Part shown: in pieces, positions 5,424-49,096 of the stretch
How positions within the stretch are numbered: the stretch's first letter is position 1
Layout of the letters: each line of letters starts with the position of its first letter
Assembly: GCA_964454895.1 (NCBI GenBank)
Contig: CAYVTW010000007.1
Location: forward strand, 12,338-76,337
Length of the DNA: 64,000 bases
Reading direction: 5' to 3'
Source of the DNA: an uncultured Ignavibacterium sp.
Lineage (GTDB): Bacteria > Bacteroidota > Ignavibacteria > Ch128b
Translations under genes and position numbers: made by a program
Notes under the pieces: generated by a model
The model's database searches: none
Told to the model about the DNA's origin: nothing
What the model saw: the letters and a program-made list of their open reading frames with translations, nothing else

Positions 5424-6704
5424 TTAATCAATAATCTCAAAACCAGTGTATTTCTGCAATACTTTAGGGACGATTAATTTACCTTCTGGTGTTTGATAAT
5501 TTTCCAGTATTGAAACCATAAGTCTAGATGTTGCAAGTCCAGATCCATTAAGTGTATGAACAAATTCCGGTTTACCACCATCTTTTCTTCTAAAACGAAT
5601 ATTAGCTCTTCTTGCTTGAAAACTTTCAAAGTTACTACAAGATGAAGCTTCTAAATATTTTTTTTCAACCGGAGCCCAAACTTCAATATCATAGCATTTA
5701 GCAGCTGAAAAGCTCAGATCGCCAGTGCATAAGAGCATTACACGATATGGTATCTTCAATTCCTTCAAAATCTCTTCAGCATCATTAACGAGGCTTTCGA
5801 GCTCATCATATGAATCTTCGGGTTTTACAAATTTTACCATTTCCACTTTATTGAACTGATGAACTCTCAAAAATCCTTTCGTATCTTTTCCGTATGAACC
5901 AGCTTCTCTTCTAAAACAAGCTGAATATCCAACGAATTTAATTGGCAAATCCTCTTCTTTTAAAATTTCATTCCTGTAAAAATTTGTAATTGGCACTTCA
6001 GCTGTAGGAATTGGGAATAAATCATCTTCTACACAATGATACATATCTTCTTCAAGTTTTGGGATCTGCCCAGTACCTATCATAGAATCCCGGTTTACCA
6101 AAAACGGTGGAAAGATTTCTTTATAACCATGTTTTTGCAAGTGATAATCGAGCATAAAATTTATTAATGCTCTCTCGAGTGTAGCTCCTTTGCCAACATA
6201 AACAGGAAAACCACTACCAGATATCTTTGCTCCTCTTTCAAAATCTAATATCTCTAATTTTTTCCCAAGCGAAAGATGATCGAGATAATTTCCATTTTCT
6301 AGCTCGTAAGAATATCCTTCAGGTGCCCATTTTCTCACTTCAACATTATGCGTTGAGTTATCACCTACGGGAACAGATGAATGGGGAACATTCGGAATGA
6401 ATAACAATATCTGATTAAGTTGTCTTTCAATTTCTGAAAGCTGTTTATCTAAAGTTGAAATTTCATCAGATACTGATTTCATCTTTTGAATAATCTCTGA
6501 TGCATCTTTCCTTTCTCGTTTTAACTTCGCAACTTCTTCCGATGCTTTATTTTTTTGAGACTTTAGCTCTTCAACTTTTTTTAATAGCTCCCTCCGTTCT
6601 ACATCGAGGTTAAGCAACTGATCTAAATTGTCTTTTTCGTGTTTATTCTTTATTGCGGTTCTTACAACCTCTGGATTTTCTCTTATGAACTTAATGTCTA
6701 ACAT
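5424..6704 (-). CDS. serS: Seryl-tRNA synthetase
   Basis: 426 aa with an N-terminal coiled-coil arm and a class II core (..GYSACFRREAGS..). Matches SerS throughout. Confidence 0.95.
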   Translation of the reverse strand: MLDIKFIRENPEVVRTAIKNKHEKDNLDQLLNLDVERRELLKKVEELKSQKNKASEEVAKLKRERKDASEIIQKMKSVSDEISTLDKQLSEIERQLNQILLFIPNVPHSSVPVGDNSTHNVEVRKWAPEGYSYELENGNYLDHLSLGKKLEILDFERGAKISGSGFPVYVGKGATLERALINFMLDYHLQKHGYKEIFPPFLVNRDSMIGTGQIPKLEEDMYHCVEDDLFPIPTAEVPITNFYRNEILKEEDLPIKFVGYSACFRREAGSYGKDTKGFLRVHQFNKVEMVKFVKPEDSYDELESLVNDAEEILKELKIPYRVMLLCTGDLSFSAAKCYDIEVWAPVEKKYLEASSCSNFESFQARRANIRFRRKDGGKPEFVHTLNGSGLATSRLMVSILENYQTPEGKLIVPKVLQKYTGFEIID

Positions 6705-6855
6705 TTTCTTTTCCTTTTAATCGAACATATTTTTTGGCTTTATAATAAATGGTAACGCTCCACAAATTGAGCATGATTAATGATGCTGAAAACTTATGGG
6801 ACTTTTGTTGAAGATCCTCAGCATATTATTCTTCATAGCGATACCGAGATTTCTA

Positions 6856-9321
6856 TTATCTAACAACTATATTCAAGATCTTTTTTGTAACATATATTTC
6901 TTTAACGATTTCTTTCCCGTCGATAAACTTTTTAACTCGAGGATCTTCTTTTGATTTTAATTTTATTTCATCTTCAGGTGTATTGATTTCGAAATCAATT
7001 GCCGCTCGAAGTTTGCCATTTACTTGAACTGCAAGTGTAAATGTTTCTTGAACTAAGGCTTCTGGATCGTAATCAAACCAAACAGGAGCTTCAAAAATGC
7101 TTTTATCTTTGCCAAGCAACGACCAACATTCTTCACCAAGATGTGGAGCAAGTGGTGCAATCAAAAATGCAAATCTTTCAAGAGCATAATAAATCAAATC
7201 TTTATTTTGAATTGAATTTAATTTTGAAAAATCGTTTAGAAGTTCCATTAAGAATGCAATCCCGGTATTAAAATGTAATGTATCAATATCTTCCACAACT
7301 TTTTTAAGAGCTTGATTTACTCTTTTATAAATGAATTTTTCATCTCCTGTAAGCTCACTAAATATAATCTTCTTTACTTGCTTATAATTTTTTAGATCAT
7401 TTGAATATTTGGAGAATAACTCATAAACACGATTGACAAATCTATTTACGCCTACAATTCCTTGATCACTCCAATCACCGCCCATATCATAAGGGCCCAT
7501 AAACATCAAGTACATTCGAAAAACATCTGAACCATATTTTTCAACGAACACATCTGGATTTACAACATTTCCTTTTGACTTCGACATCTTTGCACCCATA
7601 TTGGTAATTGTTCCTTGATGTCGAAGTTTATAGTATGGTTCATCGCATTTTACAAGTCCAATATCTCTTAAAAACTTATGTATAAATCTTGCATACAACA
7701 GGTGCATTGTTGCATGTTCGGCACCACCGATATAGCTATCAACCGGCATCCATTTATCTGCTAACTCAACATCAAACATTGCATTATCAATTTTAGGATT
7801 TAAATAACGCAAATGATACCAAGACGAATCAACAAATGTATCCATTGTGTCGGGATCTCTTTTTGCATCAGCGTGACAATTTGGACATTTCACATTCATA
7901 AATTTCTCGTGTCGTAACAGCGGTGATTCACCTGTTGGTTTAAAATCAACATCATATGGTAGAACTACAGGCAAATCTTTTTCAGGAACTGGTACTTCGC
8001 CACATTCTGGACAATGGATTATTGGGATTGGTGTCCCCCAGTATCTCTGACGCGAAATCAACCAATCACGTAATCTGTAGTTTATTTTTTTCTTTCCAAT
8101 ATTCTTTGCTTCGAGATAATCTGCTATTTTCTTTTTACCCTCTTCCGAGTCCAAGCCACTAAATTCACCAGAATTAATCATTATACCTGGTTCTACATAT
8201 GCTTCAGTTAGTTCATCTTCTGGATTTGTTCCTGGTTTCAAGATTACTTTTCTAATTGGAAGATTAAATTTCGAAGCAAACTCAAAATCTCTTTCATCAT
8301 GCCCTGGCACTGCCATCACCGCACCTGTCCCATATGTTAATAGTACATAATCTGAAATCCAGATTGGGACTTTTTCTCCATTGATAGGATTAATTGCATA
8401 AGAGCCAATGGGCACGCCAGTTTTCTCTTTTGCAGTTGAAAGTCGTTCGATTTCAGTTTCGTATTTTACTTTGTCTATGTAATCATCAACATCTCTCTTA
8501 AATTCTGGTTTTGTCAGTTTTTCGACAAGTGGATGTTCAGGAGCTAGAACAACATAAGTTACTCCAAACAATGTATCGGGCCTTGTAGTGAACACAGTAA
8601 TTTTATCACCAGTTTCAGCTTCAAAATCAATTTCAACACCTTCACTTTTTCCGATCCAGTTAATTTGCATTAACTTGGTTTTTTCAGGCCAATCAATTTT
8701 TTCTAGATCTTTTAATAATTCTTCAGCATAAGCCGTAATTTTAAAAAACCACTGAGTTAGAAATTTTTTCACAACAGGATTATCGCATCGTTCACAAGTT
8801 CCATCTGCTTTAACCTGTTCATTAGCTAATACGGTTTGACAAGATTCGCACCAATTTACAGGAGCATTTTTTCTATAAGCTAAACCTTTTTCATATAGTT
8901 TAAGAAATAGCCATTGATTCCATTTGTAATATTCAGGGACGCAAGTCATCAACTCTTTATCCCAATCATACATCGCCCCAATTCTTTTCAATTGTTTACG
9001 AATATCTTCAATATTTTGTAGTGTGCTGTCTTGTGGATGAATTCCGGTTTTAATTGCATAATTTTCTGCAGGAAGTCCAAAAGCATCATAACCCATAGGT
9101 TCAAAAGTATTGTAACCCTGAAGTTTTTTTAGCCTCGTCCATGTATCGGCTGGTCCATAATTATACCAATGTCCAATATGTAATTTTGCTCCACTTGGAT
9201 AGATAAACATTACTAATGAATACAATTTCTTATCACTTTTAGTAAGATCTGTTTTATAAACTTGATTATCTTCCCAGTATTTTTGCCATTTCAGTTCAAT
9301 TTCTTGAACAGGATATTTCAT
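6856..9321 (-). CDS. leuS: Leucyl-tRNA synthetase
   Basis: 821 aa with HIGH motif (LHIGHWYNY), KMSKS motif (KMSKSKGN), and a CP1 editing domain. Confidence 0.95.
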   Translation of the reverse strand: MKYPVQEIELKWQKYWEDNQVYKTDLTKSDKKLYSLVMFIYPSGAKLHIGHWYNYGPADTWTRLKKLQGYNTFEPMGYDAFGLPAENYAIKTGIHPQDSTLQNIEDIRKQLKRIGAMYDWDKELMTCVPEYYKWNQWLFLKLYEKGLAYRKNAPVNWCESCQTVLANEQVKADGTCERCDNPVVKKFLTQWFFKITAYAEELLKDLEKIDWPEKTKLMQINWIGKSEGVEIDFEAETGDKITVFTTRPDTLFGVTYVVLAPEHPLVEKLTKPEFKRDVDDYIDKVKYETEIERLSTAKEKTGVPIGSYAINPINGEKVPIWISDYVLLTYGTGAVMAVPGHDERDFEFASKFNLPIRKVILKPGTNPEDELTEAYVEPGIMINSGEFSGLDSEEGKKKIADYLEAKNIGKKKINYRLRDWLISRQRYWGTPIPIIHCPECGEVPVPEKDLPVVLPYDVDFKPTGESPLLRHEKFMNVKCPNCHADAKRDPDTMDTFVDSSWYHLRYLNPKIDNAMFDVELADKWMPVDSYIGGAEHATMHLLYARFIHKFLRDIGLVKCDEPYYKLRHQGTITNMGAKMSKSKGNVVNPDVFVEKYGSDVFRMYLMFMGPYDMGGDWSDQGIVGVNRFVNRVYELFSKYSNDLKNYKQVKKIIFSELTGDEKFIYKRVNQALKKVVEDIDTLHFNTGIAFLMELLNDFSKLNSIQNKDLIYYALERFAFLIAPLAPHLGEECWSLLGKDKSIFEAPVWFDYDPEALVQETFTLAVQVNGKLRAAIDFEINTPEDEIKLKSKEDPRVKKFIDGKEIVKEIYVTKKILNIVVR

Positions 9322-9822
9322 TTTTTCACCTTTTCTTTTAACAATTAGTTACAATTTTAATGATAATGTGATTGATGTTCAAAAAGGATGAATTAGTTCA
9401 TCGATTAGGAGTGGAATAATTAAACATGGTTTCTATTATCCAACGAACATTATCTAACGAATTCATTTACATAAACTTTAAGAATCCTGAACAAAAAAGT
9501 TCATTTTAGAAATTGTATTGGTCTTTTGAGCTTAAATATTTGATAAAATCGTTAAAGGCACTTTGATAAGACTTTCTTTAAATTTTCTAAGTTTAATTTG
9601 AGAGAATGGTTTTTAACTTGCTTAAAAAAATTAAAAACAAAATTAATTTTGTATGATGCAAATCGGTTTAGAATCTTGTATAGTTGATTGCTAATGAAAA
9701 ATTTAAAAAACTCTTTAAGCAAACTTGAAATAGCGAATGAATTGATTTTTGTTAATCAGATCATAGCCCAGAATTGAGTTTCAGGGCTATGATTACTTTG
9801 ATTTGAAAACACGTCTTAGATT

Positions 9823-19968: not shown

Positions 19969-21966
19969 TCACATCAAAATTTGACTGACAATTCCACCAA
20001 TAGTGAATGCAAAAAACCAAGTACCAGCCCAGATAATAAGACCTTTCTTTAATCCTCTTTCTTTAATCATTACAAGGAAAGAAGCGATACATGGGACAAA
20101 AAGCGTTATTGTAACTAGTGCAACAACTGTTTGATAAATACTTAAATCCATGTGAAATAAACCAGCAGCACCAAAATCTCTTCTAATCATTCCCATAATA
20201 AAAGCTATTGCTGATTCTTTTGGCAACTGAAGCCATTTTGTTGTAAATGGTTCAAGCAGATTAATCCATACATTGATTAGACCAGTTATTTGAAGCATTC
20301 CAATTATTGCTGTTCCTAAAAAGAAAAGTGGAGTTGCTTCTTTCATAAATCCAACAGTTCTGTAATAAGTTTTTCTGAGAACATTTTTTAAGTCAGGAAT
20401 ACTCATTAGAGGTAAATCTAATATTAATGGTGAACTATGGCCGGGTACAAGTTTATCGAGTAATGTACTAGTAAGAATTAAAACTGTAAGAATCACAATA
20501 ACATATAAGACAATTGCTTTCGGACCTGCAGCACTTAACAAGACAGTTATTACAGCAAGTTGTGCAGAACATGGAATAACAAATTGTAATATTGCAGTTG
20601 CAATTGTTTTTTCTCTTTCTGTTCCAAGCATTCGAGTTGTGATTGTTGCCATCGTCACACATCCAAAGCCAAGAATAATTGGAATGATAGCTTTACCATT
20701 TAAACCAACTTTTGTAAATAAACGATCAGCCATTGCTGCAAGTCTTGGTAGGTATCCGCTATCTTCTAAAAATGCAAGTGTTAAATAAAATGAAGTCACA
20801 AGCGGAAGTAAAAGGAAGAAAAGATATGTTATCGTCATTGTGATTACACCAAACTCACCGAAAAAAAACTGTGCAATTACATTATGGAATACAAAGTTAA
20901 TTTCTGTGTTTTTATCTGATATAAAATTCTGAAATTCTTCAAACCCTTTTTCATCACTTCCAATCCCATTTGGAAATGAATATACTTTTTCTTGTATAAC
21001 ATTATCTTCTTCGTCGAGAACCGAAACAAAAATATCCGTGCTGATTGAATGACCAATCAGCTTTTTGATATTATATTCAACTAATCCTTTGCCAATTGTA
21101 TTTTCTGTCAGATCCACAAGCCTTTGGGCAACTAAATCTCCAACAAAGAAATATATCAGAGTTAAAAGAAGTAACAGAATCGGAATACCTGTTAAAGGAT
21201 TTAATGCTAGTCTACCAAGTTTGGAAAAAAATAATCCAACTGGAGTATCACTACTTTCAACCGAGTCAACAATTTCTTTAACTCTATTTCTTCGATGGAT
21301 GTAAATTTCTTCTCTTATATCCTCCAGTGGTAATTTGATATCGGGATATTTTTTTATAACCTCTCTATCACCTTCAAGATAGAGCAAAGCCTCTGCGGGA
21401 TCAAAAATTCTTTCTTTTACTAGTTTTAATTTTTCTTGAGTTAACTTGTCAACCTTCCCAACTCTTGCTTTTTGAATTGCTTCATCTATTTTGTCAATGC
21501 CATCACCTCTTAAGGCAGACATTTCGAATACTTCAACACCGAGTATATTAGAAAGTTTTTTTGTATCAATTATCAAATTGTGCTTTTTAACTTCATCCAT
21601 CATATTTAAAATGACGGATACTTTCTTCCCCATATCAATCAATTGAAGAGTAAGGAAAAGATCTCGTTCGAGATTCAATGCATTAACGATACAAAGAATA
21701 ATATCACCTCGCAGAATAATTTCTTTTGCTACTTTCTCTTCATCGTTAAACGAGGAAACTCCATAAATTCCTGGTGTATCGAAAACATGATAATTCTTGT
21801 ACCACGCAGAAATTATAGAAACAGTAGTTCCTGGGAAATTTGAAACTTCAGCGTAAAGTCCACTCAAATGATTAAAGATGAGAGATTTGCCGACATTTGG
21901 ATTTCCAGCTAGAACAACTTTTTTAAATTCAATCTTAGGATTTGTAGAAGCTTTTGGTGAGTGCAT
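19969..21966 (-). CDS. feoB: Ferrous iron transporter FeoB
   Basis: N-terminal G-domain (GNPNVGKSLIFNHLSG) plus polytopic membrane domain. 665 aa. Confidence 0.9.
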   Translation of the reverse strand: MHSPKASTNPKIEFKKVVLAGNPNVGKSLIFNHLSGLYAEVSNFPGTTVSIISAWYKNYHVFDTPGIYGVSSFNDEEKVAKEIILRGDIILCIVNALNLERDLFLTLQLIDMGKKVSVILNMMDEVKKHNLIIDTKKLSNILGVEVFEMSALRGDGIDKIDEAIQKARVGKVDKLTQEKLKLVKERIFDPAEALLYLEGDREVIKKYPDIKLPLEDIREEIYIHRRNRVKEIVDSVESSDTPVGLFFSKLGRLALNPLTGIPILLLLLTLIYFFVGDLVAQRLVDLTENTIGKGLVEYNIKKLIGHSISTDIFVSVLDEEDNVIQEKVYSFPNGIGSDEKGFEEFQNFISDKNTEINFVFHNVIAQFFFGEFGVITMTITYLFFLLLPLVTSFYLTLAFLEDSGYLPRLAAMADRLFTKVGLNGKAIIPIILGFGCVTMATITTRMLGTEREKTIATAILQFVIPCSAQLAVITVLLSAAGPKAIVLYVIVILTVLILTSTLLDKLVPGHSSPLILDLPLMSIPDLKNVLRKTYYRTVGFMKEATPLFFLGTAIIGMLQITGLINVWINLLEPFTTKWLQLPKESAIAFIMGMIRRDFGAAGLFHMDLSIYQTVVALVTITLFVPCIASFLVMIKERGLKKGLIIWAGTWFFAFTIGGIVSQILM

Positions 21967-21973
21967 TGTTTTA

Positions 21974-22201
21974 TTAATTAATCATGATCACTTTAATCTT
22001 CTTTGCGAGCTCACTACCGAGAGCAATCTCTAGTCGATTCTTTTTAAGGATAACTGTCCCTCCAAGAATTTTATCGAGGCAGGTAACTTTTTCTCCTTCA
22101 GCAATTCCAAATCGAATTAATTGAAGTTTATACTCATCTTCAGGAAGATGATCGATAATAAATTTTTGTCCTCTTTCAACTTTATCAAGAGTTGTCTTCA
22201 T
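21974..22201 (-). CDS. feoA: FeoA
   Basis: 75 aa SH3-like protein immediately upstream of feoB. Confidence 0.8.
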   Translation of the reverse strand: MKTTLDKVERGQKFIIDHLPEDEYKLQLIRFGIAEGEKVTCLDKILGGTVILKKNRLEIALGSELAKKIKVIMIN

Positions 22202-22202
22202 T

Positions 22203-22664
22203 TTATTCTTCTCTTTTTGTTTTACACTTATCTGGATTTTTACAATATCCGTAAATATGGAAGCTGTGATTTACAGGTGTAAATCCATATTCCTCACATA
22301 TTCTTTCTTGGATTTTTAAGATTTCATTATTTTCGAATTCGACAATTTTACCACAATTCAAACAAATTAAATGATCGTGCTCAGTTACACCTAAACTCTT
22401 TTCATAGCGTGCTTCTTTCCCCATAAAATTATGTTTAGAAAGAAGCCCACAAGCTACAAGTAATTCAAGTGTATTATAAACAGTCGCTCTAGAAATATTA
22501 GATCCCTCATTTTTCATCGCAAGAAAAAGTTCATCGGCGCTAAAATGCATAACTTGTCTAAATGCATATTCAAGTACTTCGAATCTTTCTGGAGTAATCC
22601 GATAAGAACCCTTCTTCAAAAAGTCGGTAAATATTTCGGTTGCGTGAGTAATATTAATTATCAT
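22203..22664 (-). CDS. fur: Fur-family metalloregulator (Fur or PerR)
   Basis: 153 aa with HxH, CxxC x2 (HLICLNCG..GYCKNPDKC) and the DNA-binding helix (SRATVYNTLELL). Confidence 0.85.
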   Translation of the reverse strand: MIINITHATEIFTDFLKKGSYRITPERFEVLEYAFRQVMHFSADELFLAMKNEGSNISRATVYNTLELLVACGLLSKHNFMGKEARYEKSLGVTEHDHLICLNCGKIVEFENNEILKIQERICEEYGFTPVNHSFHIYGYCKNPDKCKTKREE

Positions 22665-22779
22665 TTCAATTATTATTTAGACTAAATCTAATTTAGGCAT
22701 CTAATATATTTTTGTCAAGATTAAACTTTAATCTTTTATTTTTTGTTAAAAATGCGAAATTTGAAAAAAGAGGTTTTAT

Positions 22780-22983
22780 ATGTCAAATACATCTTTTGAA
22801 AAAAGACAAGTCGTCGGAATATCCACAAAAAGCATTTCCGACGCAATCGATTCAGTTGTAAAACAATACAACTCAAAAAATCCAGTTTCCTGGTTTGAAG
22901 TTGTTGAAATTAGAGGAAGAGTAACTCAAACTGGAGAAATTGAATATCAAGTCACAATAAACTTAGGTCAAAAAACAAATTAA
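22780..22983 (+). CDS. Dodecin (flavin-binding)
   Basis: 67 aa MSNTSFEKRQVVGIS..WFEVVEIRG..YQVTINLG. Matches the dodecin signature (..VIEIVG.S..WFEV..IRG..FQVT.KVGF). Confidence 0.8.
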   Translation: MSNTSFEKRQVVGISTKSISDAIDSVVKQYNSKNPVSWFEVVEIRGRVTQTGEIEYQVTINLGQKTN

Positions 22984-22994
22984 ACGGAGGAAAA

Positions 22995-23477
22995 ATGTCC
23001 TTAAAAGTTGGAGACACATACAAAAATTTTACCTTAAAAAATAATCGTTTAGAAAATGTAACCTTGAGCGATTTTGTTGGGAAGAAAAATATTGTTCTGT
23101 TATTTTTCCCATTTGTGAATACTGGTGTTTGCGAAAAAGAACTTTGTCAGACACGTGATAGTCTTGAAGATTATAAAAATTTAGATGCAACAATCTTTGG
23201 AATTAGCGTGGATAGTCCTTTCGCCCAAAAACTCTGGAATGAAAAGTTGAATTTTGGTTTCGATCTACTTAGCGACTTTAACAAAGAGGTATGTCAACTT
23301 TATGGAGTGCTAGATGAGAATTGGCTATCCGAAAAGTTCGGCTACAGAGGTGTGGCTAAAAGATCGGCTTTTGTAATCGATAAAAATGGTATTATTCAAT
23401 ATGCTGAGGTGCTTGACGACCCGGGAAAAGAACCTAATTATGAAAAAATAAAAGAATCTCTTTCCAAACTTGTGTAA
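22995..23477 (+). CDS. Peroxiredoxin (AhpC/TSA/redoxin family)
   Basis: FFPFVNTGVCEKELC contains the peroxidatic Cys in a Prx context. Confidence 0.8.
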   Translation: MSLKVGDTYKNFTLKNNRLENVTLSDFVGKKNIVLLFFPFVNTGVCEKELCQTRDSLEDYKNLDATIFGISVDSPFAQKLWNEKLNFGFDLLSDFNKEVCQLYGVLDENWLSEKFGYRGVAKRSAFVIDKNGIIQYAEVLDDPGKEPNYEKIKESLSKLV

Positions 23478-23546
23478 ACATTTATGAATGCTCATCTCAA
23501 TGATCGATAATTTTTTAAACAATCGTTATTTTTGAAATAAAAAGAG

Positions 23547-24041
23547 ATGGGCATTCATTTCTTAAAATACATTTCAGAAATTTTTCAAATTATTGCAATT
23601 ATATTTTGGACAGGAAGCTTAATAGTGATTGTTTTTATTCTTTATCCTCAAATAAACAGATTTAAAGAGAGTAAAAAAATTATTACACAGATTTTCGTCG
23701 AAAGCATAAATAAGGTCGAATATATTTTAATTATTGCGTTAATTTTATTATGGAGTGGAATATTAATTCATCTTACAACAGCTGCGAGCAATCCTCTAAA
23801 ATCAAAAATGTATATTCTTTATTTGCTTCTTTCAGGAATGATGAGCGTTTTTACTTTGTTGAAAATTTTCTGGATTCAACATACTATCATAAAATCTGAA
23901 AAAAGTCTTCGTTTATTTACACAACATGAACTCAAAAACTCAATTGACAAAAAACTTGATAATTATAATAAAGCCTACTACTTCATATCATTAGTAAACC
24001 TTGTGATTATTTTCACAATAATTTTAATTAACCAATTTTGA
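23547..24041 (+). CDS. Hypothetical membrane protein (about 4 transmembrane segments)
   Basis: Hydrophobic segments. 4-nt overlap with the downstream bcp start. Confidence 0.55.
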   Translation: MGIHFLKYISEIFQIIAIIFWTGSLIVIVFILYPQINRFKESKKIITQIFVESINKVEYILIIALILLWSGILIHLTTAASNPLKSKMYILYLLLSGMMSVFTLLKIFWIQHTIIKSEKSLRLFTQHELKNSIDKKLDNYNKAYYFISLVNLVIIFTIILINQF

Positions 24042-24508
24042 GGTGGACGATGTTAAAAGAAGGAGCAAAAGCACCAGTATTCACTCTTTTAAATCAGGAT
24101 GGAAAGAAAATATCACTAAAGGATTTTCTCGGCAAAAAGGTTGTTCTTTATTTTTATCCAAAGGATATGACCTCCGGTTGTACAAAAGAGGCGTGTGATT
24201 TTAGAGATCACATAAAGTTATTTCATAATAAAGATGTTGTTGTGGTTGGTGTAAGCCCTGACTCAGTTCAGTCTCACAAAAAATTTCAAGAAAAATATAG
24301 TTTACCATTCGATCTATTAAGTGATGAAAGTAAAAAGGTTCTGGAAAAATATGGTGTATGGAAAGAAAAAAGTATGTATGGGAAAAAATACTTTGGAGTA
24401 GAGAGAACAACATTTATTATTGATGAAAATGGGAAGATTAAAAAGATTTTTCCGAAAGTTAAAGTAGATGGCCATATAAAAGATGTCTTAAAAGCATTGG
24501 AAGAATAA
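24038..24508 (+). CDS. bcp: Thiol peroxidase Bcp (peroxiredoxin Q)
   Basis: LYFYPKDMTSGCTKEAC with Bcp length and motif. Confidence 0.9.
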   Translation: MRWTMLKEGAKAPVFTLLNQDGKKISLKDFLGKKVVLYFYPKDMTSGCTKEACDFRDHIKLFHNKDVVVVGVSPDSVQSHKKFQEKYSLPFDLLSDESKKVLEKYGVWKEKSMYGKKYFGVERTTFIIDENGKIKKIFPKVKVDGHIKDVLKALEE

Positions 24509-24512
24509 AAAA

Positions 24513-24980
24513 ATGGATATACCAAATTTAGATCAAAACAAAGTTAAGCTTCTTGCAAATTCAAAAACTTATAAAAATTTACTTGAAGGATTTGCATTAG
24601 AGAGTCAAGCAAATCGTAGATATATATTTTTTGCACAGAAGGCTAAAGCAGAAGGTTTTGAAGAGATTGCAAATGTTTTCTTGGAAACTGCTGAAGGAGA
24701 AGGAGGCCACTCATTAGGTCATATCGAATTTCTATCACCGATTGCTGATCCATTAACAGGAAAACAGCTTGGTGATACCGAAACAAATCTTAAAACTGCT
24801 ATTGAAGGGGAGACCTACGAATTTAGTGAGCTCTACCCTGGGTTTGCCAGAGTTGCTCGAGAGGAAGGATTTGATGAAATAGCAGAATGGTTCGAATTTC
24901 TTGCAAGAGCTGAAAAATCTCACGCGGGAAGGCTACAAAAAGCTCTGGACTTATTGTATGAACTAAAAAAGAAAAAATAG
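24513..24980 (+). CDS. Rubrerythrin-family ferritin-like diiron protein (no rubredoxin domain)
   Basis: ExxH diiron motifs (EGEGGHSLGHIEF..EGETYEFSELYP..). 155 aa. Confidence 0.75.
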   Translation: MDIPNLDQNKVKLLANSKTYKNLLEGFALESQANRRYIFFAQKAKAEGFEEIANVFLETAEGEGGHSLGHIEFLSPIADPLTGKQLGDTETNLKTAIEGETYEFSELYPGFARVAREEGFDEIAEWFEFLARAEKSHAGRLQKALDLLYELKKKK

Positions 24981-25022
24981 TCTCTTCCTCTCATCACAAT
25001 TCAAAATTATATGAGGTTTTAA

Positions 25023-25604
25023 TTGAGAAAGATTGATTATTCGGAAATAATACCTTATAGCGAGTATCTGAAAGTTAGAAAAGAATTTCAAGATAAAATT
25101 ATTAAACTCAAAAAAAATCGAAGAATTCAGATTGGTGAATACATTACTTTTGTTTTCGAAAACAGAGAGACTGTTCTTTATCAGATACAAGAAATGATTA
25201 GACTTGAAAAGATGACCGATGAAAGATTAATCAAAAATGAAATAGAAGTTTTTAACCAACTAATTCCAAACGAAAATGAACTTGTAGCAACCATGTTCAT
25301 TGAAATTTTTGAGAGACATTTAATTAAACCAGTTTTAAATTCATTAGTTGGAATACAAAACAAGATTTTTCTTGAGTTTAATAATGAAGTGATCCCCTGC
25401 ATATTCTATGAAGAAAATATAAGCGAAGGGAAAATTAGCTCAGTACAATATGTTAAATTTATATTTAACGATGAACAAAAAAATAAATTTATAGATCCCA
25501 AGGTCCAGATTAAAATTAAAATAGATCATCCTAATTACAAAGTTGAAGCTATTATTCCAGAAAATATCAAAGCAAGTTTAAGAGAGGATTTAATTAAAAA
25601 ATGA
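25023..25604 (+). CDS. Conserved hypothetical protein (193 aa, TTG start), possibly DUF3501-like and rubrerythrin-associated
   Basis: ORF directly downstream of the rubrerythrin gene. Family assignment is from memory only. Confidence 0.5.
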   Translation: MRKIDYSEIIPYSEYLKVRKEFQDKIIKLKKNRRIQIGEYITFVFENRETVLYQIQEMIRLEKMTDERLIKNEIEVFNQLIPNENELVATMFIEIFERHLIKPVLNSLVGIQNKIFLEFNNEVIPCIFYEENISEGKISSVQYVKFIFNDEQKNKFIDPKVQIKIKIDHPNYKVEAIIPENIKASLREDLIKK

Positions 25605-35757: not shown

Positions 35758-36462
35758 TTAATCTGCATTAGTTAAGGAGTAAACTTCGCTTAGCCTTCGA
35801 GCACCAACAAATCTTCTCTCATAATAGCCCGATGCCATTGAACTAACAATTACACCATACTTCGTAGAGGCATGTACAAAATAATTCTCCCACAAATAAA
35901 TACCTACATGACCTGGATTTTGTCTTCTTCGTGTATTGAAAAAAACTAAATCACCAAATTTGAGATTATCTTTTGAAACAGGTTGGCCTAATTTAACTTG
36001 TTCCAAGGTTGATCTTGGTAAATCTATACTTAACGATTCTTGAAATACCAAACGTGTAAATGCGCTACAATCAATTCCTTTTCTTGTGTTTCCGCCAAAT
36101 TTATACGGTGTTCCGAGGTAAGAAATAACTGTCATCAAAAATTTTTCATAATCAGTTGGGATACTATTGGTTGTATCTAATCTACCATACTTTGAGAAGA
36201 AATCTGCTAAATTTTCTATTGGTTTAATTTCTTCTTCTGATGAAATAACTTCTCGAAGTTCTTCTTCCGTAAATTCTAAATCAGTCGCAAATCTCTGAGT
36301 TGTATCTGATGCTTGAGAATTAATTGCTTTAGCTATTCGAAGTGAATCAATAAAAAATTGTTTACCGTTTCCATTTCCATTTGTTTTTGTTGCAAATCTT
36401 ACTGGTCCATAACAAGAAGAAAAAAATAGAATTGCAGTAAAAAGGAAAAGTAATTCTCTCAA
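35758..36462 (-). CDS. NlpC/P60 (C40) peptidase lipoprotein
   Basis: Lipobox (FFSSC). C40 catalytic Cys-His blocks (DCSAFTRLVF..HVGIY). Confidence 0.8.
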   Translation of the reverse strand: MRELLFLFTAILFFSSCYGPVRFATKTNGNGNGKQFFIDSLRIAKAINSQASDTTQRFATDLEFTEEELREVISSEEEIKPIENLADFFSKYGRLDTTNSIPTDYEKFLMTVISYLGTPYKFGGNTRKGIDCSAFTRLVFQESLSIDLPRSTLEQVKLGQPVSKDNLKFGDLVFFNTRRRQNPGHVGIYLWENYFVHASTKYGVIVSSMASGYYERRFVGARRLSEVYSLTNAD

Positions 36463-36480: not shown

Positions 36481-36524
36481 TCAAAAATAAAAAACCTCCG
36501 GTTGATTCTACATCAACGCGGAGG
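36481..36524 (-). terminator. Rho-independent terminator downstream of rpoD
   Basis: Roughly 12-bp stem cctccggttgat/atcaacgcggagg (36495-36506 / 36512-36524) with a 1-nt bulge. An A-run at 36483-36494 on plus gives the U-tract on minus. Confidence 0.65.
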
Positions 36525-36543: not shown

Positions 36544-37401
36544 TTAACCCAAGTAAGCTTTTAAAGCTTTACTTCTTGATGCGTGTCTTAATCGTCTAAT
36601 AGCTTTTTCTTTAATTTGTCTTACTCTTTCCCTCGTAAGGTTAAATTTTTCTCCAATCTCTTCAAGGGTAAGTGAGTGTTCAGAATTTAATCCAAAATAT
36701 AATCTTATAACTTCCGCTTCTCTTTCTGTCAATGTTGATAAAGCTCTCTCTATTTCTTGCTTCAATGATTCTTTCATCAATCCATGATCTGGAGCAGGTT
36801 GAGCATCGTTGCTAATAACATCGAGTAGTCTATTCTCTTCACCTGGTGCAAATGGTGCATCAACAGAGACATGTCGACCAGAGATTTTCAAAGTATCAGC
36901 AATCTCATTAATTGGAATGTTCAATTCTTCTGAAAGCTCTTCAGCACTTGGTTCTCTCTCGAATTCCTGCTCAAGGTTACTGAAAGCTTTACCTATTTTA
37001 TTTAATGCACCTACTCTGTTTAGAGGTAATCGAACAATTCTCGATTGTTCTGCGAGTGCTTGAAGAATAGATTGTCTGATCCACCAAACTGCATAAGAAA
37101 TAAATTTGAATCCACGAGTCTCATCAAATCTTTTTGCGGCTTTAATTAAGCCTAAATTACCTTCGTTAATTAAATCTCCTAAAGATAACCCCTGGTTTTG
37201 GTATTGTTTAGCGACACTAACTACGAAGCGAAGATTTGCTTTTACCAGTTTTTCTAAAGCTCTCTGGTCACCTTTTTTAATTCGTTGAGCTAACTCGATT
37301 TCCTCCTCCGAGGTTATTAAATCAACTCGACCAATTTCTTGTAAATATTTATCTAAAGATTGACTCTCACGATTTGTATATTGTTTTGTGATTCTCACCA
37401 T
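36544..37401 (-). CDS. rpoD: RNA polymerase sigma-70 factor (short primary-type, 285 aa)
   Basis: Regions 2-4 conserved (..[18 protein letters not shown].., ..[13 protein letters not shown].., ..[23 protein letters not shown]..). Confidence 0.9.
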
Positions 37402-37403
37402 GT

Positions 37404-37685
37404 TTATCCCTTTAAATTTGTTTCAACATCTATTCTATCAATGATACCAACAATTGAAGCATCAACAGGAGCCATATCAACGGGTAACGGAATGACCGCT
37501 TCAGACGCAGTTATATACATAACTATCTCACCTGGTCCTGCACCAACAGTATCAATAGCAACAATTGGCTCCCCAGTTTTTTCTAGCTTTGAATTTAATG
37601 GTTGTATGAATTGCATTTTTAACGCTTGCAGGGCTGGATACTTTTTAGTAGCCCAAATTGTTCCAATAACTTTAGCAAAAAACAT
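37404..37685 (-). CDS. BMC vertex (pentamer) protein, EutN/CcmL/PduN family (PF03319-like), paralog 2
   Basis: 93 aa [50 protein letters not shown]. Shares the conserved VIGTV..T.K...L.G and VA.D.VGAG.GE.VL blocks. Confidence 0.7.
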
Positions 37686-37984
37686 TAATTCTTTGCTGTC
37701 TCCAATTTTTCTTCTTTAATTACAATATCTAACTTGTCTACGATTGCCATTATAACAGCATCTATTGGTTTGTTCTTGGTGAATGTTGTTTGTCGAGCCG
37801 AAGAACCCGTTGCCACAAGTACCACCTCACCAACACCAGCACCAACGCTATCAACTGCAACTACGAAATTCTTGGTTTCAGAATAATCTAGGTTAATTTG
37901 ACGAACAATCAGAAACTTGGCACCCACCAGATTTTCGTCTTTTCTGGTTGCCCAAACTGTTCCTATTACTCTTCCTAAGATCAA
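37685..37984 (-). CDS. BMC vertex (pentamer) protein, EutN/CcmL/PduN family (PF03319-like), paralog 1
   Basis: 99 aa MILGRVIGTVWATRKDENLVGAKFLIV..VVAVDSVGAGVGEVVLVATGSSARQ..IDAVIMAIVDKLD. Close to E. coli EutN (VAIDNIGAGTGEWVLLVSGSSARQ). Confidence 0.8.
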   Translation of the reverse strand: MILGRVIGTVWATRKDENLVGAKFLIVRQINLDYSETKNFVVAVDSVGAGVGEVVLVATGSSARQTTFTKNKPIDAVIMAIVDKLDIVIKEEKLETAKN

Positions 37985-37988
37985 TTTT

Positions 37989-38381
37989 CTACCCTTTTTT
38001 GTTAATTTTTAGAAGTTTTACATTATTATAATTTAAATATTTTTCTGAATTAAAAGTAGCCAAAACCAACTTGTTCTGAACCGACATCACAACAATTAGA
38101 GCATCCCGCAAGTTCCATTCTTTGTTTAACATTTTTTGCGTTTCAATAATTTCTGCTACTTTTTCAGCGTATCTACTATGAATACCTAGAACTTTGAAAC
38201 CAAATAATAACATATCCGCAAATTTTTTATTTTCAGTTCCTGCGAATTCATAAACTTCAATTGCGTTTATCACAGAAGTAAAACAATCATACTTTTTCAT
38301 TAATTTCATTAAAGTTGATTCCTGATCGCTTGTAATTAGATGATCAACTAATATATCGGTATCAACTAATATTTGTTTCAT
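37989..38381 (-). CDS. PIN-domain protein (VapC-like putative ribonuclease)
   Basis: 130 aa. ILVDTDILVDHL at the N-terminus (catalytic Asp), E in NAIEVYE, D in LRDALIV, and an LATFNSEKY C-terminal motif. 4-nt overlap with the upstream ORF. Confidence 0.7.
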   Translation of the reverse strand: MKQILVDTDILVDHLITSDQESTLMKLMKKYDCFTSVINAIEVYEFAGTENKKFADMLLFGFKVLGIHSRYAEKVAEIIETQKMLNKEWNLRDALIVVMSVQNKLVLATFNSEKYLNYNNVKLLKINKKG

Positions 38382-38626
38382 TTAGTGATTTTTCCCTTCG
38401 ATCTAACAACTCCAAGTGCAATTTCAAGAGGAATCCTTTGTATAGTTGATATCTGTTCAACTGTTTTCTTTGAGATATTTTCTTTCTTACAAATTTCATC
38501 TAGATCAATCAAAAATTTTACTTTAAATTCTCTAGAATTTAATCGTCGCAAGAATGCAATAGCATCATCCGAAAGAATTAATGAATTATTCTCAAGCTTC
38601 GCTTTGAATTCTTTTTCTTCGATCAT
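38378..38626 (-). CDS. Hypothetical 82-aa protein, candidate PIN partner (antitoxin-like position)
   Basis: ORF translationally coupled (ATGA overlaps) to deoB upstream and the PIN gene downstream. No recognisable DNA-binding motif. Confidence 0.45.
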   Translation of the reverse strand: MIEEKEFKAKLENNSLILSDDAIAFLRRLNSREFKVKFLIDLDEICKKENISKKTVEQISTIQRIPLEIALGVVRSKGKITK

Positions 38627-39789
38627 ATAATCTCTCCATAAAAACTTTCTCCTGAGAGATAATTTTCAACACCATAAAAATCACAAACTGTTTTTGCCAG
38701 ATCAGCAAAAGTATTCCTCAATCCTAAATTGATATTTTGTTTCAATTTTTTTCCATACACTAAAATTGGTACGAGTTCTCTTGTGTGATCAGTACCTGGA
38801 AAAGTTGGATCATTGCCATGGTCTGCCGTGATAAAAAGAACGTCATTATTAGATAATGATTGAATTATATCTGGTAAGTAATTGTCAAATTCTTTGAGAG
38901 CATTATAAAAACCTTCAACATCGTTACGATGACCGTAAAGCATATCGAAGTCGACAAGATTCGTCATGATATATGCCGATTTTTCCATTTTGGTATTTTC
39001 AATTGTTTGAATAATTCCTTCTAAATTATTCTTCGTTTTAATCTGGATATCAATATTTCTGTAGGCAAATAAATCATTTATCTTTCCGATACCAATTGTC
39101 TTAATATTGTTTTTCTTTAGAACATCAAAAATTATTTCACCATCTGGCTCTAGTGCAAAATCTTTTCTTCGATGCGTACGGATAAAATTACCGTTCGAAC
39201 CGATGAATGGCCGGGCTATGATTCTACCAACTGCATGTTCACCAATCATTACTTTTTCGCGGGTAACTTTACATATTTCATACAGACGATCTATTGGGAT
39301 TACTTCTTCGTGAGCTGCTATTTGAAAGACAGAATCTGCACTTGTATAAACAATAGGGAAACCTGTTCTAATATGTTCTTCACCAAGCTCTTGTATTATC
39401 TCGGTTCCAGACGCGGCTTTATTTCCAAGAATTCCTTTAAGATTATTCTCTTTCAAAAATTTCTGAATTATTTCATTAGGGAATCCGTTCGGATAAACTG
39501 GAAATTGTTTTTGCGAAATATATCCTCCTAATTCCCAGTGGCCAGTAGTACTATCTTTTCCTTTCGAAATTTCTTTCATCTTCCCAAAACAACCAATAAT
39601 TTCAGGATTCTTTGAGTTTAATTCTACTAGTTTTCCTAAGCCGAGTCTTTCGAGATTAGGTAATTCTATTCCACCAAGAGCTTTAGAAATGTTACCAAGT
39701 GTATTTGAGCCTGTATCATTATAGAGTTCTGCATCTGGAGCATTCCCAATTCCTACACCATCTAAAACTATAACTATTGCTTTACTCAT
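38623..39789 (-). CDS. deoB: Phosphopentomutase
   Basis: 388 aa. The N-terminus MSKAIVIVLDGVGIG and the metal-binding blocks match DeoB. Confidence 0.9.
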   Translation of the reverse strand: MSKAIVIVLDGVGIGNAPDAELYNDTGSNTLGNISKALGGIELPNLERLGLGKLVELNSKNPEIIGCFGKMKEISKGKDSTTGHWELGGYISQKQFPVYPNGFPNEIIQKFLKENNLKGILGNKAASGTEIIQELGEEHIRTGFPIVYTSADSVFQIAAHEEVIPIDRLYEICKVTREKVMIGEHAVGRIIARPFIGSNGNFIRTHRRKDFALEPDGEIIFDVLKKNNIKTIGIGKINDLFAYRNIDIQIKTKNNLEGIIQTIENTKMEKSAYIMTNLVDFDMLYGHRNDVEGFYNALKEFDNYLPDIIQSLSNNDVLFITADHGNDPTFPGTDHTRELVPILVYGKKLKQNINLGLRNTFADLAKTVCDFYGVENYLSGESFYGEII

Positions 39790-39800
39790 ACAACTATCCT

Positions 39801-41630
39801 CTATTTAGATGTTCTAATTTTATCACCACCACTTGCTATAGCTTTGCTCAGAGCTGCCTCAGCTGAGTTAAAGAGAGTTTCTGCTTTAATTATTTTGACA
39901 CCTCCTGAATAACCTATACTTACAGTAATACCTATTTCATTATCATCATATCTTATAAAGTCCCCAGAAATCTTCTGTAAAATCTTTTGACACCAAATAT
40001 AATCACTAGCACTATCTCGATTCAGAAACAATACACCGAACTTTAAATTTTCGAGTCTTCCCAGTAGCATCAATTCCTCTGCTTCTTTGGTAAGAAGTAG
40101 CGATATATGTTTTGCAATTTTTGGAATTATTTTATGAGTATATTTTCTGACTAACTTATCGACTTTATCGACAGATATCAATGCTAAACCAATATGCATC
40201 ACTGTTGTTTTAAATTTTGTTAACTCTTCTTGAACTCTATTCTCAAATGTCTGACGATTTAATAGCATTGTTTCAAGATCTATGCTTAAATAATTCTCAA
40301 GCAAAGTTTTATTGAAAAGATAATCTAGCTGAGATGCAAAATAACTTGATATTTTTTCTATAAGTCTAACATCTTCATCTGAGTAAATTTTTTTCTTTAG
40401 GCTTTCAAGAACCAATGCACCATATATCTGACCATTTGATGTTATTGGTACAATTATTAAAGATCCTTTGATATTAGATTGCAGATTTTTTCTAAATAAG
40501 AAATATTTATCAATACCTGAATCATCAATTCGTATACTTTTATTTTTTTCGAAGGAATAACCTATTAGAGTATCTGGGCTAATATCTACAGATAGGTTTT
40601 CGCCCATATAATCAACAGAGGTTCTATTGACCAATTTCTTTAGTATATAACTTTTTGCAGCATTATCATATAGAACAACACCGAGTACATCCCATGGTAG
40701 TAATTTATCAAGTACGACTATTATTTTTTGAATTAATTTTTTTTCATCAAATTCTTGAGAAGAATTTCCAATCAATTCAATTATTGCATCAAATTTTTGA
40801 TTGGACATTTCAATATTAAACTTCTCATCGTAAATACTAAGAACTAAAGTTATCATTCTTACAAATTTTCCAAGTATAAATATTGTTTCTGGTCCAAAAG
40901 CATCTTCACTTTTACTATCAATTGCTAATACACCAATAATTTTATCATTCAAGTAAACAGGTACAGCAGCTATAGATTTTATTCCAATGGGTGTTGGATA
41001 ATATTTAATTAGATCAGTTTCTATATTCGAATTAATGTTACAAGTATAGATTGGATTTCCACTTCGTATAACTCTACTTATTAAATCTGAACCAATCTTG
41101 TATTTAATTTTTTGAAGATCGTCCACTGCTGATGAGAAGTTGTGGAATATTATTTGTCCCTTATCACTTCGATACCAGAAAAAAATCGCTGAGTGAGCAA
41201 GAAATACCTGTTTGATTACATCTAATGTTTTTTCTAGGATAAAATTAAATTGAACTTCAACACTAGCGCTACCCGGTATAGGTTCAAGAGCAATCCTTCG
41301 ATATTCTGCATTTAAATCTTGTGGTATTAACTTAGAGATTTTTTTGTTTACAATACTTTCCTGTAAATCTATATCCGTTAAAATCTTATCCGTCGGTTCT
41401 TCGGATAATTCAAATTTTTCATCTGTAGTATTTTCACTTTCATCATCTATTGTTACAGAACTTATCTTGTTACTTCCTCCATTTCGAAAAAATATGACAA
41501 AACTGATTAGTATCAAAATTAATGCACTTAAGATAATTTTAATTAACTGTGAATCTATCAGAAATATCCCAACTAGAGGAAGTAGAATTGATAAAAAGAT
41601 TAGAGCTCTTTTGAGATTTACTTTTATCAA
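39801..41630 (-). CDS. Membrane-anchored GAF-domain sensor with a degenerate GGDEF-like C-terminal domain
   Basis: Two N-terminal transmembrane helices and central GAF-like regions. The C-terminus aligns to GGDEF, but the signature reads ENLKF in place of GG(D/E)EF. Confidence 0.7.
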   Translation of the reverse strand: MIKVNLKRALIFLSILLPLVGIFLIDSQLIKIILSALILILISFVIFFRNGGSNKISSVTIDDESENTTDEKFELSEEPTDKILTDIDLQESIVNKKISKLIPQDLNAEYRRIALEPIPGSASVEVQFNFILEKTLDVIKQVFLAHSAIFFWYRSDKGQIIFHNFSSAVDDLQKIKYKIGSDLISRVIRSGNPIYTCNINSNIETDLIKYYPTPIGIKSIAAVPVYLNDKIIGVLAIDSKSEDAFGPETIFILGKFVRMITLVLSIYDEKFNIEMSNQKFDAIIELIGNSSQEFDEKKLIQKIIVVLDKLLPWDVLGVVLYDNAAKSYILKKLVNRTSVDYMGENLSVDISPDTLIGYSFEKNKSIRIDDSGIDKYFLFRKNLQSNIKGSLIIVPITSNGQIYGALVLESLKKKIYSDEDVRLIEKISSYFASQLDYLFNKTLLENYLSIDLETMLLNRQTFENRVQEELTKFKTTVMHIGLALISVDKVDKLVRKYTHKIIPKIAKHISLLLTKEAEELMLLGRLENLKFGVLFLNRDSASDYIWCQKILQKISGDFIRYDDNEIGITVSIGYSGGVKIIKAETLFNSAEAALSKAIASGGDKIRTSK

Positions 41631-42235
41631 ATTGCGCTCTCTCTACTTTCGGAAATTTTTCTCATCACGTAAGATTGAAATTCTCTTTTACCTTCACCTG
41701 ATTTTGCTGAAAAGAAGAAAAAATCTAAACTTAAACCACTTGTTAAATTCCTTACCAATTTATTCAATTTAGTTCTTTCTGATTGGTTTAATTTATCAAC
41801 TTTAGTAAACAAAATGCAATATGGGAAATTTAAGTTTATAACATAATCTCTCGCAATCTCATCTAGCTTAGTAAAAGGGATCCTTGCATCCATAAGATGA
41901 CACACAAGAAAAATTTTAGGACTTAGAGCAAAATAATCTTGTATCAATTTTGAAAATCTGAAACTATCCTCTTTACTAGTTGATGAATATCCAAAGCCTG
42001 GTAGATCAACTAAATAAAATTTTTCATCTACTACATAGAAATTGATTGATCGAGTTTTTCCAGGAGTTTGACTGACCTTAGCAAAATTTTTTTTGTTTAA
42101 AAGTGCATTAATCAATGAGGATTTCCCGACATTAGAGCGACCCATGAATACAATTTCGGGTAAATTTTGGGTTTTCAACTGTTCCAATGTGTAAACCGTC
42201 CGTTCTAAACGCACATTTTCAAAATTTATTCTCAT
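41627..42235 (-). CDS. engB: Ribosome biogenesis GTPase EngB (YsxC/YihA)
   Basis: GRSNVGKSSLINALL G1 motif. 202 aa. Confidence 0.85.
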   Translation of the reverse strand: MRINFENVRLERTVYTLEQLKTQNLPEIVFMGRSNVGKSSLINALLNKKNFAKVSQTPGKTRSINFYVVDEKFYLVDLPGFGYSSTSKEDSFRFSKLIQDYFALSPKIFLVCHLMDARIPFTKLDEIARDYVINLNFPYCILFTKVDKLNQSERTKLNKLVRNLTSGLSLDFFFFSAKSGEGKREFQSYVMRKISESRESAI

Positions 42236-42279: not shown

Positions 42280-42316
42280 ACAAAAAAAGGAGTAGTTAGA
42301 ATATTCCAACTACTCC
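42280..42316 (-). terminator. Rho-independent terminator downstream of rplQ (end of the ribosomal super-operon)
   Basis: 9-bp stem ggagtagtt/aactactcc (42289-42297 / 42308-42316). An A-run at 42282-42288 on plus gives the U-tract on minus. Confidence 0.6.
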
Positions 42317-42338
42317 TAAAATAGTAAAATGAAAAGTC

Positions 42339-49025: not shown

Positions 49026-49096
49026 CTGCCGGGAGAGGATTCGAACCTCTACATACGGCTCCAAAGGCCGCTGTCCTACCCTTAGACGACCCGGCA
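49026..49096 (-). tRNA. tRNA, anticodon UUG (Gln) by manual folding. No CCA is encoded.
   Basis: Cloverleaf on the reverse complement:
- 7-bp acceptor TGCCGGG/CCCGGCA
- U8
- D-arm GTCT-AAGGGTA-GGAC with G18 G19 A21
- anticodon stem GCGGC/GCCGT around loop CTTTGGA
- 4-nt variable loop
- T-arm AGAGG-TTCGAAT-CCTCT
- discriminator G. Confidence 0.6.

Follow-up and report, generated by a model that had tools for sequence, protein, structure and literature searches.

Why should two genes for vertex proteins of a bacterial microcompartment (BMC) stand directly upstream of a housekeeping-like sigma factor gene, among ribosomal protein and other housekeeping genes? The arrangement occurs in a stretch of 64,000 nucleotides, called the window below, from an uncultured Ignavibacterium sp. 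(assembly GCA_964454895.1, contig CAYVTW010000007.1, positions 12,338 to 76,337). The two genes, which we call P1 (37685-37984, minus strand; 99 amino acids [aa], TTG start) and P2 (37404-37685, minus strand; 93 aa), had been picked out in an earlier annotation made from the DNA letters alone, the sequence-only reading, as an orphan pair in an arrangement not previously described. We consider it probable, at roughly three chances in four, that P1 and P2 are vertex proteins of a FRAG1-type fragmented microcompartment, a catalogued type whose shell genes are dispersed over the genome. The basis for this reading is domain identity, similarity to a proven vertex protein, synteny, the absence of other shell genes nearby, and the catalogue membership of one genome, Ignavibacteria bacterium RBG_13_36_8.

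Both proteins are members of the vertex (pentamer, BMC-P) family, as had been proposed. In a Pfam scan P1 matched PF03319 (EutN_CcmL) with 110.5 bits (E = 5.6e-32) and P2 matched it with 93.7 bits (E = 1e-26), each over profile positions 1-83 of 83 and against a gathering cut-off of 25 bits, and the signature blocks VIGT[VI]WAT.K and VGAG.GE were present in both open reading frames (ORFs). Both also matched the CcmL, EutN, and CsoS4 models of NCBIfam, each time under the equivalog cut-off, and they are therefore family members and not orthologs of any named vertex protein. The gene boundaries were exactly those first described. The minus strand reads TAATG where the P1 stop codon (37687-37685) and the P2 ATG (37685-37683) overlap by 1 nt at position 37685, and the P2 stop ends at 37404, leaving 2 nt before the sigma ATG at 37401.

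The identity between P1 and P2 is 38%. The nearest solved relative of P1 was Hoch_5814 of Haliangium ochraceum, which occupies the vertices in the structure of that organism's intact shell (PDB 5V74; 88.7 bits, 58% identity over 83 aa), and a second solved vertex protein, 4I7A, scored 66.9 bits. The corresponding scores for P2 were 53.1 bits with 4I7A and 51.5 bits with 5V74, and its identity to Hoch_5814 was 35%. The GAGxGE loop and the C-terminal I(V/I)D region (IVD or IID) were kept in both the P1 and the P2 families, P2 itself retaining GAGPGE and GIID, and the GS pore motif, present in P1 as GSSAR, was replaced in P2 by ASEA. Contacts of BMC-P with the hexamer (BMC-H) are made, in the solved GRM2 shell, by G49, D54, E79, and K80 (PMC6971018). 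P1 may be a standard pentamer of the "green/viridian3" type and so share its catalogue clade with the vertex protein of the Haliangium shell, the clade having been read via the nearest relative, Hoch_5814. P2 is probably the "grey" or "orange" member of a BMC-P triplet, and a specialised paralog is the best-supported reading of this divergent protein. Trp11, in the motif GT[VI]WAT[RK]K, was invariant in both families, with Val in its place in the Haliangium vertex protein. The GC content of the two genes equals that of the adjacent genes, and recent horizontal acquisition was rejected on this ground.

We then looked for the rest of a microcompartment in the window. A tblastn search with four BMC-H proteins as queries gave zero matches, a hidden Markov model (HMM) built from the same four proteins found nothing with E < 9 among all six-frame ORFs of at least 50 aa, and a BMC-P HMM recovered exactly two PF03319 ORFs. 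Pfam scans of the non-ribosomal ORFs returned housekeeping families only, with no PF00936, PF00171, PduL, EutBC, PduCDE, or glycyl-radical enzyme and with none of DERA (PF01791), RpiB (PF02502), or aldehyde dehydrogenase (AldDH). The earlier statement that no hexamer gene or signature enzyme lies nearby thus held for all 64 kb. Across 83 related loci, neither a BMC-H nor a third BMC-P gene was found within about 6 kb of the pair, and this constant separation from other shell genes would fit an obligately distal fragment. A protein-database search with a Haliangium BMC-H sequence gave no identifiable Ignavibacteria match among the 120 listed, all of them at least 82% identical and either unnamed or myxobacterial; an abundant match in that search, P0145, belongs to a complete locus like that of Haliangium (HO) and not to Ignavibacteria. 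The product names given by the Joint Genome Institute (JGI) look swapped in this family. Many P1 orthologs, which carry PF03319, are called "microcompartment protein CcmK/EutM" and some EutN, and several PF00936 hexamers bear the name "CcmL/EutN," so that screens based on names would miscount shell types.

A precedent for such a pair is found in the catalogue of Sutter et al. (2021; Nat Commun 12:3809; PMC8217296, Supplementary Data 2). FRAG1 is described there as a shell-protein-only type of 57 loci with genes in up to six genomic places, occurring chiefly in Ignavibacteria, also in Ca. Kryptonia and Bacteroidetes, in a few Chlorobi and Rhodothermaeota, and in one Proteobacterium. Its set consists of a green, grey, and orange BMC-P triplet, two hexamers (a basal BMC-H and one of about 229 aa with a C-terminal extension), and, in 24 loci, a PduS/PduT pair, of which PduT is a trimer. 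The catalogue authors found neither enzymes nor encapsulation peptides, and FRAG1 may have no true main locus. In the BMC-P tree of the catalogue, Ignavibacteria and Rhodothermaeota entries of 98-99 aa are tagged FRAG1 (sat) in clade viridian3, a clade that also contains the main-locus BMC-P of HO. In the redundancy-reduced trees, as far as they are accessible, neither the clade of P2 nor a BMC-H entry for RBG_13_36_8 was found.

It is RBG_13_36_8 that ties the catalogue to the gene order seen here. Its P1 ortholog (P0063) lies on contig MHAE01000047.1 in the order rpoA-L17-EngB-GGDEF-deoB-P1(99)-P2(93)-sigma-NlpC, and the BMC-T (trimer) tree of the catalogue contains, from elsewhere in the same genome, a FRAG1 (sat) protein of 183 aa and PduT type (A2V66_12875). 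The rpoD-adjacent pair therefore already lies inside a catalogued FRAG1 system with PF00936 proteins elsewhere. The idea that the orphan pair represented an undescribed arrangement had to be given up: FRAG1 is catalogued in Ignavibacteria, and RBG_13_36_8 has the same gene order. Prior cataloguing, which the sequence-only reading had itself named as a reason to withdraw the claim, is essentially what these entries amount to. The P1-P2 pair beside rpoD is of a known kind, an instance of a catalogued type and not a new system. Two explanations had been offered for it, and of these a satellite of distant BMC genes is now favoured, while a non-BMC use of the pentamer fold was left without positive support.

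The catalogue also lists MROS_2475 of Melioribacter roseus as a FRAG1 satellite. [quoted passage not shown] A satellite locus has been defined as one with only PF03319 or only PF00936, with contiguous shell genes, and with at least one non-satellite locus elsewhere in the genome (Axen 2014). P1-P2 is both PF03319-only and contiguous. The mark of FRAG1, dispersed shell genes with neither enzymes nor other shell genes beside them, was likewise seen here: further shell genes were absent from the window and from the flanks of the 83 related loci, and metabolosome enzymes from the window.

To follow the locus across species, as the sequence-only reading had suggested, we collected its relatives. 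Database relatives of P1 run into thousands, the best 120 being 76-100% identical. Those of the best 120 that bear organism names are mostly Ignavibacteria or Melioribacteraceae MAGs, a few are labelled Bacteroidetes/Bacteroidota, and there were single matches from a hydrocarbon metagenome, from Syntrophothermus, and from an unclassified bacterium. A scan of GTDB, with one genome per species, placed P1 relatives in at least 229 species, and locus counts were made on the best 80. These 80 loci come from Ignavibacteria, Melioribacteraceae, Kryptonia, "Bacteroidota" MAGs, a Chlorobiaceae MAG, Rhodothermales, Calditrichota, and unclassified MAGs, a range that agrees with that of FRAG1, was found independently of it, and adds Calditrichota and the unclassified MAGs.

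Synteny proved to be strong. P1 and P2 are adjacent in 78 of the 80 genomes; the sigma gene begins less than 200 nt downstream of P2 in 54 of 77; and in 53 of 70, Rhodothermales and Calditrichota among them, deoB is found upstream of P1 at a distance of no more than 1 kb. A PIN-domain gene directly upstream of P1 is shared by fewer genomes (26 of 70, at 22-79% identity) and is missing from RBG_13_36_8. Median identities to the window proteins were 75% for P1 (80 genomes), 66% for P2, 84% for the sigma factor, 63% for L17, and 57% for deoB, and the levels for P1 and P2, set against those of their neighbours, indicate that both genes are under strong purifying selection.

More distant lineages depart from the common order. 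Rhodothermales have deoB-P1-P2 followed by an inverted block of LysE, PCMT, CdaA, and FolP, with the sigma gene about 3.5 kb further on, which suggests that an ancestral P2-sigma adjacency may have been split there by insertion of a four-gene block. In locus L046 the inverted block (6590-9642) encodes LysE, a protein-isoaspartate methyltransferase, the diadenylate cyclase CdaA, and FolP, and similar spacing was seen in L035, L048, L051, L053, L065, and L070. Calditrichota have the order deoB-P1-P2-Ham1, and some unclassified MAGs have an extracytoplasmic function (ECF) sigma factor, an anti-sigma factor, HtrA, P1, P2, and Ham1. The Ham1/RdgB-type ITPase gene that takes the place of sigma after P2 (L052:6523-7182 and L078:6643-7263; also L075, L076, L083, and L084) is a second nucleotide-metabolism neighbour of the pair besides deoB. 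One Ignavibacteriales MAG (L039:6553-8319) has two tandem sigma copies after P2, 69% and 70% identical to the sigma factor of the window.

A FRAG1 origin would give the pair the following part in a shell. Each of P1 and P2 would form a pentamer capping vertices of a polyhedral shell, P1 as the standard pentamer and P2 as a specialised paralog. The facets would come from BMC-H and BMC-T proteins presumably encoded elsewhere in the same genome, where we would expect the basal hexamer, the hexamer of about 229 aa, a third BMC-P, and in many cases PduS together with a trimer of PduT type. The pair itself sits in a compact string, EngB-GGDEF-deoB-orf82-PIN-P1-P2-sigma, where the ribosomal-protein/rpoA cluster ends. 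This position in a housekeeping string makes constitutive production of P1 and P2, alongside the housekeeping sigma factor, probable.

Several observations weigh against this account. Co-occurrence of PF00936 proteins with the pair comes from the catalogue and from one directly linked genome, RBG_13_36_8. FRAG1 is without known cargo, and the catalogue authors found neither enzymes nor encapsulation peptides, which leaves the shell of this type putative. A housekeeping operon beside the primary sigma factor is an odd setting for a catabolic organelle, and P1 is conserved very strongly, its median identity of 75% exceeding that of both L17 (63%) and deoB (57%). AlphaFold2 monomer models made from shallow alignments had low confidence (pLDDT of 57.0 for P1 and 58.8 for P2) and lend zero structural support. 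Finally, Ignavibacterium album JCM 16511 is listed with 2 BMC-H and 0 BMC-P genes (Axen 2014, Table S2), so that hexamers and pentamers do not always go together in this group. A MAG named I. album (L007) has P1-P2-sigma at 85% identity; either the type strain is without the pair, or the small genes went unannotated in 2013.

The first alternative to weigh, which we regard as unlikely, is that P1 and P2 have a housekeeping role independent of any shell, for instance as binders of RNA polymerase or sigma, of nucleic acid, or of an enzyme of nucleotide metabolism. Such a role would suit the ancient deoB-P1-P2-(sigma) neighbourhood, seen in Ignavibacteria, Kryptonia, Rhodothermales, and Calditrichota, and the housekeeping or nucleotide-metabolism nature of the neighbours, with deoB on the upstream side and, in six distant loci, Ham1/ITPase on the downstream side; yet the identity of P1 with a proven shell vertex is 58%. 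It would also be in keeping with a P1 more conserved than L17 and with a Trp11 that is invariant in both families and replaced by Val in the Haliangium vertex protein, whereas both families keep the loops through which pentamers of solved shells contact hexamers. The lack of known enzymes or encapsulation peptides in FRAG1 is again in keeping with a shell-independent role; against it, those pair-bearing genomes that can be checked via the literature do have PF00936 proteins, and the literature consulted on PF03319 proteins gave no non-shell function.

Quite unlikely, in our view, is that the pair is a plain satellite of a complete metabolosome locus elsewhere in the genome, such as the MIC4/PVM-like aldolase and AldDH locus of M. 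roseus. That species does have a main MIC4/PVM-like locus (MROS_0099-0104) besides its satellites, but the locus possesses a BMC-P of its own, of clade fadedGreen1 (MROS_0104). The catalogue records MIC4 in Ignavibacteria too, but it assigns the viridian3 pentamers of 98-99 aa from Ignavibacteria, and RBG_13_36_8, to FRAG1 and not to MIC4. The first two features of an Axen satellite are indeed present in P1-P2; even so, relatives of the pair occur in at least 229 GTDB species, compared with 15 MIC4 loci in the catalogue. That P1 and P2 are functionless, decaying remnants of a lost microcompartment locus, as the lack of shell or enzyme partners within 25 kb might suggest, is effectively refuted by the conservation data: 78 of 80 species have unbroken, full-length frames, median identity reaches 75% (P1) and 66% (P2) across phylum-level distances, and the translationally coupled arrangement is conserved.

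With FRAG1 membership as the preferred reading, we compared the locus with named systems. It resembles FRAG1 in its taxa, in its scattered shell genes free of enzymes, in a pentamer of 98-99 aa, here a putative viridian3 member, and in the deoB-P1-P2-sigma order of RBG_13_36_8; the deoB/rpoD operon context, however, is not mentioned in the accessible catalogue. HO of Haliangium shares with it a pentamer 58% identical to P1 (Hoch_5814) and the placing of two of its three pentamer genes at a satellite site, as in the type I HO satellite locus. Unlike the locus studied here, HO has a main locus that unites BMC-H, BMC-T, BMC-P, and AldDH, and its satellite pair adjoins an aldolase, whereas P1-P2 includes the standard pentamer and has deoB and sigma as neighbours. 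An HO-like complete locus with the order Tdp-H-P-AldDH-T has a BMC-P with 56% identity to P1. Carboxysomes offer parallels in obligately distal shell paralogs (ccmK3/ccmK4) and in an adjacent pentamer pair (csoS4A/csoS4B), but their main locus and their cargo are known, ccmK3/K4 code for hexamers, and csoS4A/B are part of the cso operon.

SPU (sugar-phosphate utilisation) metabolosomes, like FRAG1, have BMC-P triplets, and deoB makes deoxyribose-5-phosphate, the presumed SPU substrate (PMC11585597). The catalogue HMM that best fits the clade of P1 bears the name "viridian3_mixed-spu." We treat the adjacency of deoB and this HMM name as a hint of an SPU link and not as evidence. The SPU signature enzymes DERA, RpiB, and AldDH are absent from the window, and the texts consulted do not count deoB among the genes of SPU loci.

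What had gone unremarked is the ancient deoB-P-P-rpoD linkage, which persists across phylum-level distances. A tentative and rather doubtful extension is that a deoB-BMC-P-BMC-P-primary sigma operon was already in place before Ignavibacteria, Rhodothermales, and Calditrichota diverged, and that FRAG1 would be a constitutive organelle for deoxyribose-phosphate or nucleoside breakdown, a dispersed counterpart of SPU fed by deoB, or else that its pentamers would have a second, shell-independent role. If the extension is true, either version would provide the first functional handle on the cargo-less FRAG1. FRAG microcompartments occur in many uncultured phyla and have no known cargo, substrate, or regulation. 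The residual value of the locus is its conserved deoB-P-P-sigma operon, which may lead to the function of FRAG1. It also touches on the puzzle of why many microcompartments have three pentamer paralogs although twelve pentamers are enough for one shell. The linkage to deoB and sigma, and pentamers that evolve more slowly than a ribosomal protein, are clues for work in cultured Melioribacter, Ignavibacterium, and Stygiobacter.

The sigma-70 gene downstream of P2 (36544-37401, minus strand) encodes 285 aa with Pfam regions r1_2, r2, r3, and r4, corresponding to regions 1.2-4. The sequence-only reading had called it rpoD. A median identity of 84% over 63 genomes fits a housekeeping factor; a caveat on the label is that the protein stayed below the RpoD equivalog cut-offs of NCBIfam (303 bits against 572). 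This short primary-type form is the usual primary sigma factor of the Bacteroidota/Ignavibacteria group. An NlpC/P60 peptidoglycan endopeptidase gene (35758-36462, minus strand; PF00877, 103 bits) follows 81 nt downstream of sigma and holds the same place in many Ignavibacteria loci.

Upstream of the pair, all on the minus strand, the packed string is headed by the GTPase gene EngB/YsxC (41627-42235; NCBIfam TIGR03598, 187 bits) and continues with a GAF-GGDEF protein (39801-41630; GAF and GGDEF Pfam families in the Logan annotation) and the phosphopentomutase gene deoB (38623-39789; 388 aa), which scored 518 bits against NCBIfam PRK05362 (cut-off 256) and 461 bits against TIGR01696 (cut-off 341). 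Between deoB and P1 lie an 82-aa ORF that matches no family (38378-38626) and the gene for the PIN-domain protein (37989-38381; 130 aa; PF01850, 34 bits). The 82-aa ORF and the PIN gene are wedged in by 4-nt overlaps, and the persistence of the PIN gene is unusual for a toxin-antitoxin-like pair. PADLOC gave no match for the PIN protein, the 82-aa ORF, P1, or P2.

From EngB to sigma the successive junctions, counted as overlaps or gaps, measure 4, 11, 4, 4, 4, 1, and 2 nt. A pattern scan found a single terminator-like site between 35.6 and 43.1 kb, a hairpin with a 13-bp stem and a T run between L17 and EngB (42288-42317, minus strand), and zero such sites from EngB to the end of sigma. The hairpin likely marks the start of an EngB-to-sigma transcription unit. 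Given the tight packing and this sole hairpin upstream of EngB, it is plausible that P1 and P2 are co-transcribed with sigma, and the TAATG overlap and the 2-nt gap are compatible with the co-transcription that had been proposed from spacing. A scan for sigma-70-type promoters gave 25 sites compared with 34 in shuffled sequence, and the Bacteroidetes-type -7 motif TAnnTTTG was seen 90 times with 91 expected and was absent upstream of P1 and of sigma. With both scans at or below background, they are evidence neither for nor against an internal promoter. A TAnnTTTG match at 36482-36489 may give the NlpC/P60 gene a promoter of its own.

In the window as a whole, the gene order runs from a partial rpoC through S12, S7, EF-G, EF-Tu, the S10/spc/alpha ribosomal clusters, rpoA, and L17 to EngB, and then through GAF-GGDEF, deoB, the 82-aa ORF, PIN, P1, P2, and sigma to NlpC/P60. 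Beyond these come a class II ribonucleotide reductase and further housekeeping genes. An Rfam scan of the whole window found one tRNA gene (49026-49096, minus strand; 62 bits), which lies inside the ribosomal-protein gene cluster, and nothing else. Away from the pair, positions 19969-25604 hold an iron and oxidative-stress cluster, with Fur, FeoA, and FeoB on the minus strand and a divergent plus-strand part encoding dodecin, two peroxiredoxins, a 164-aa ORF that matches no family, rubrerythrin, and DUF3501.

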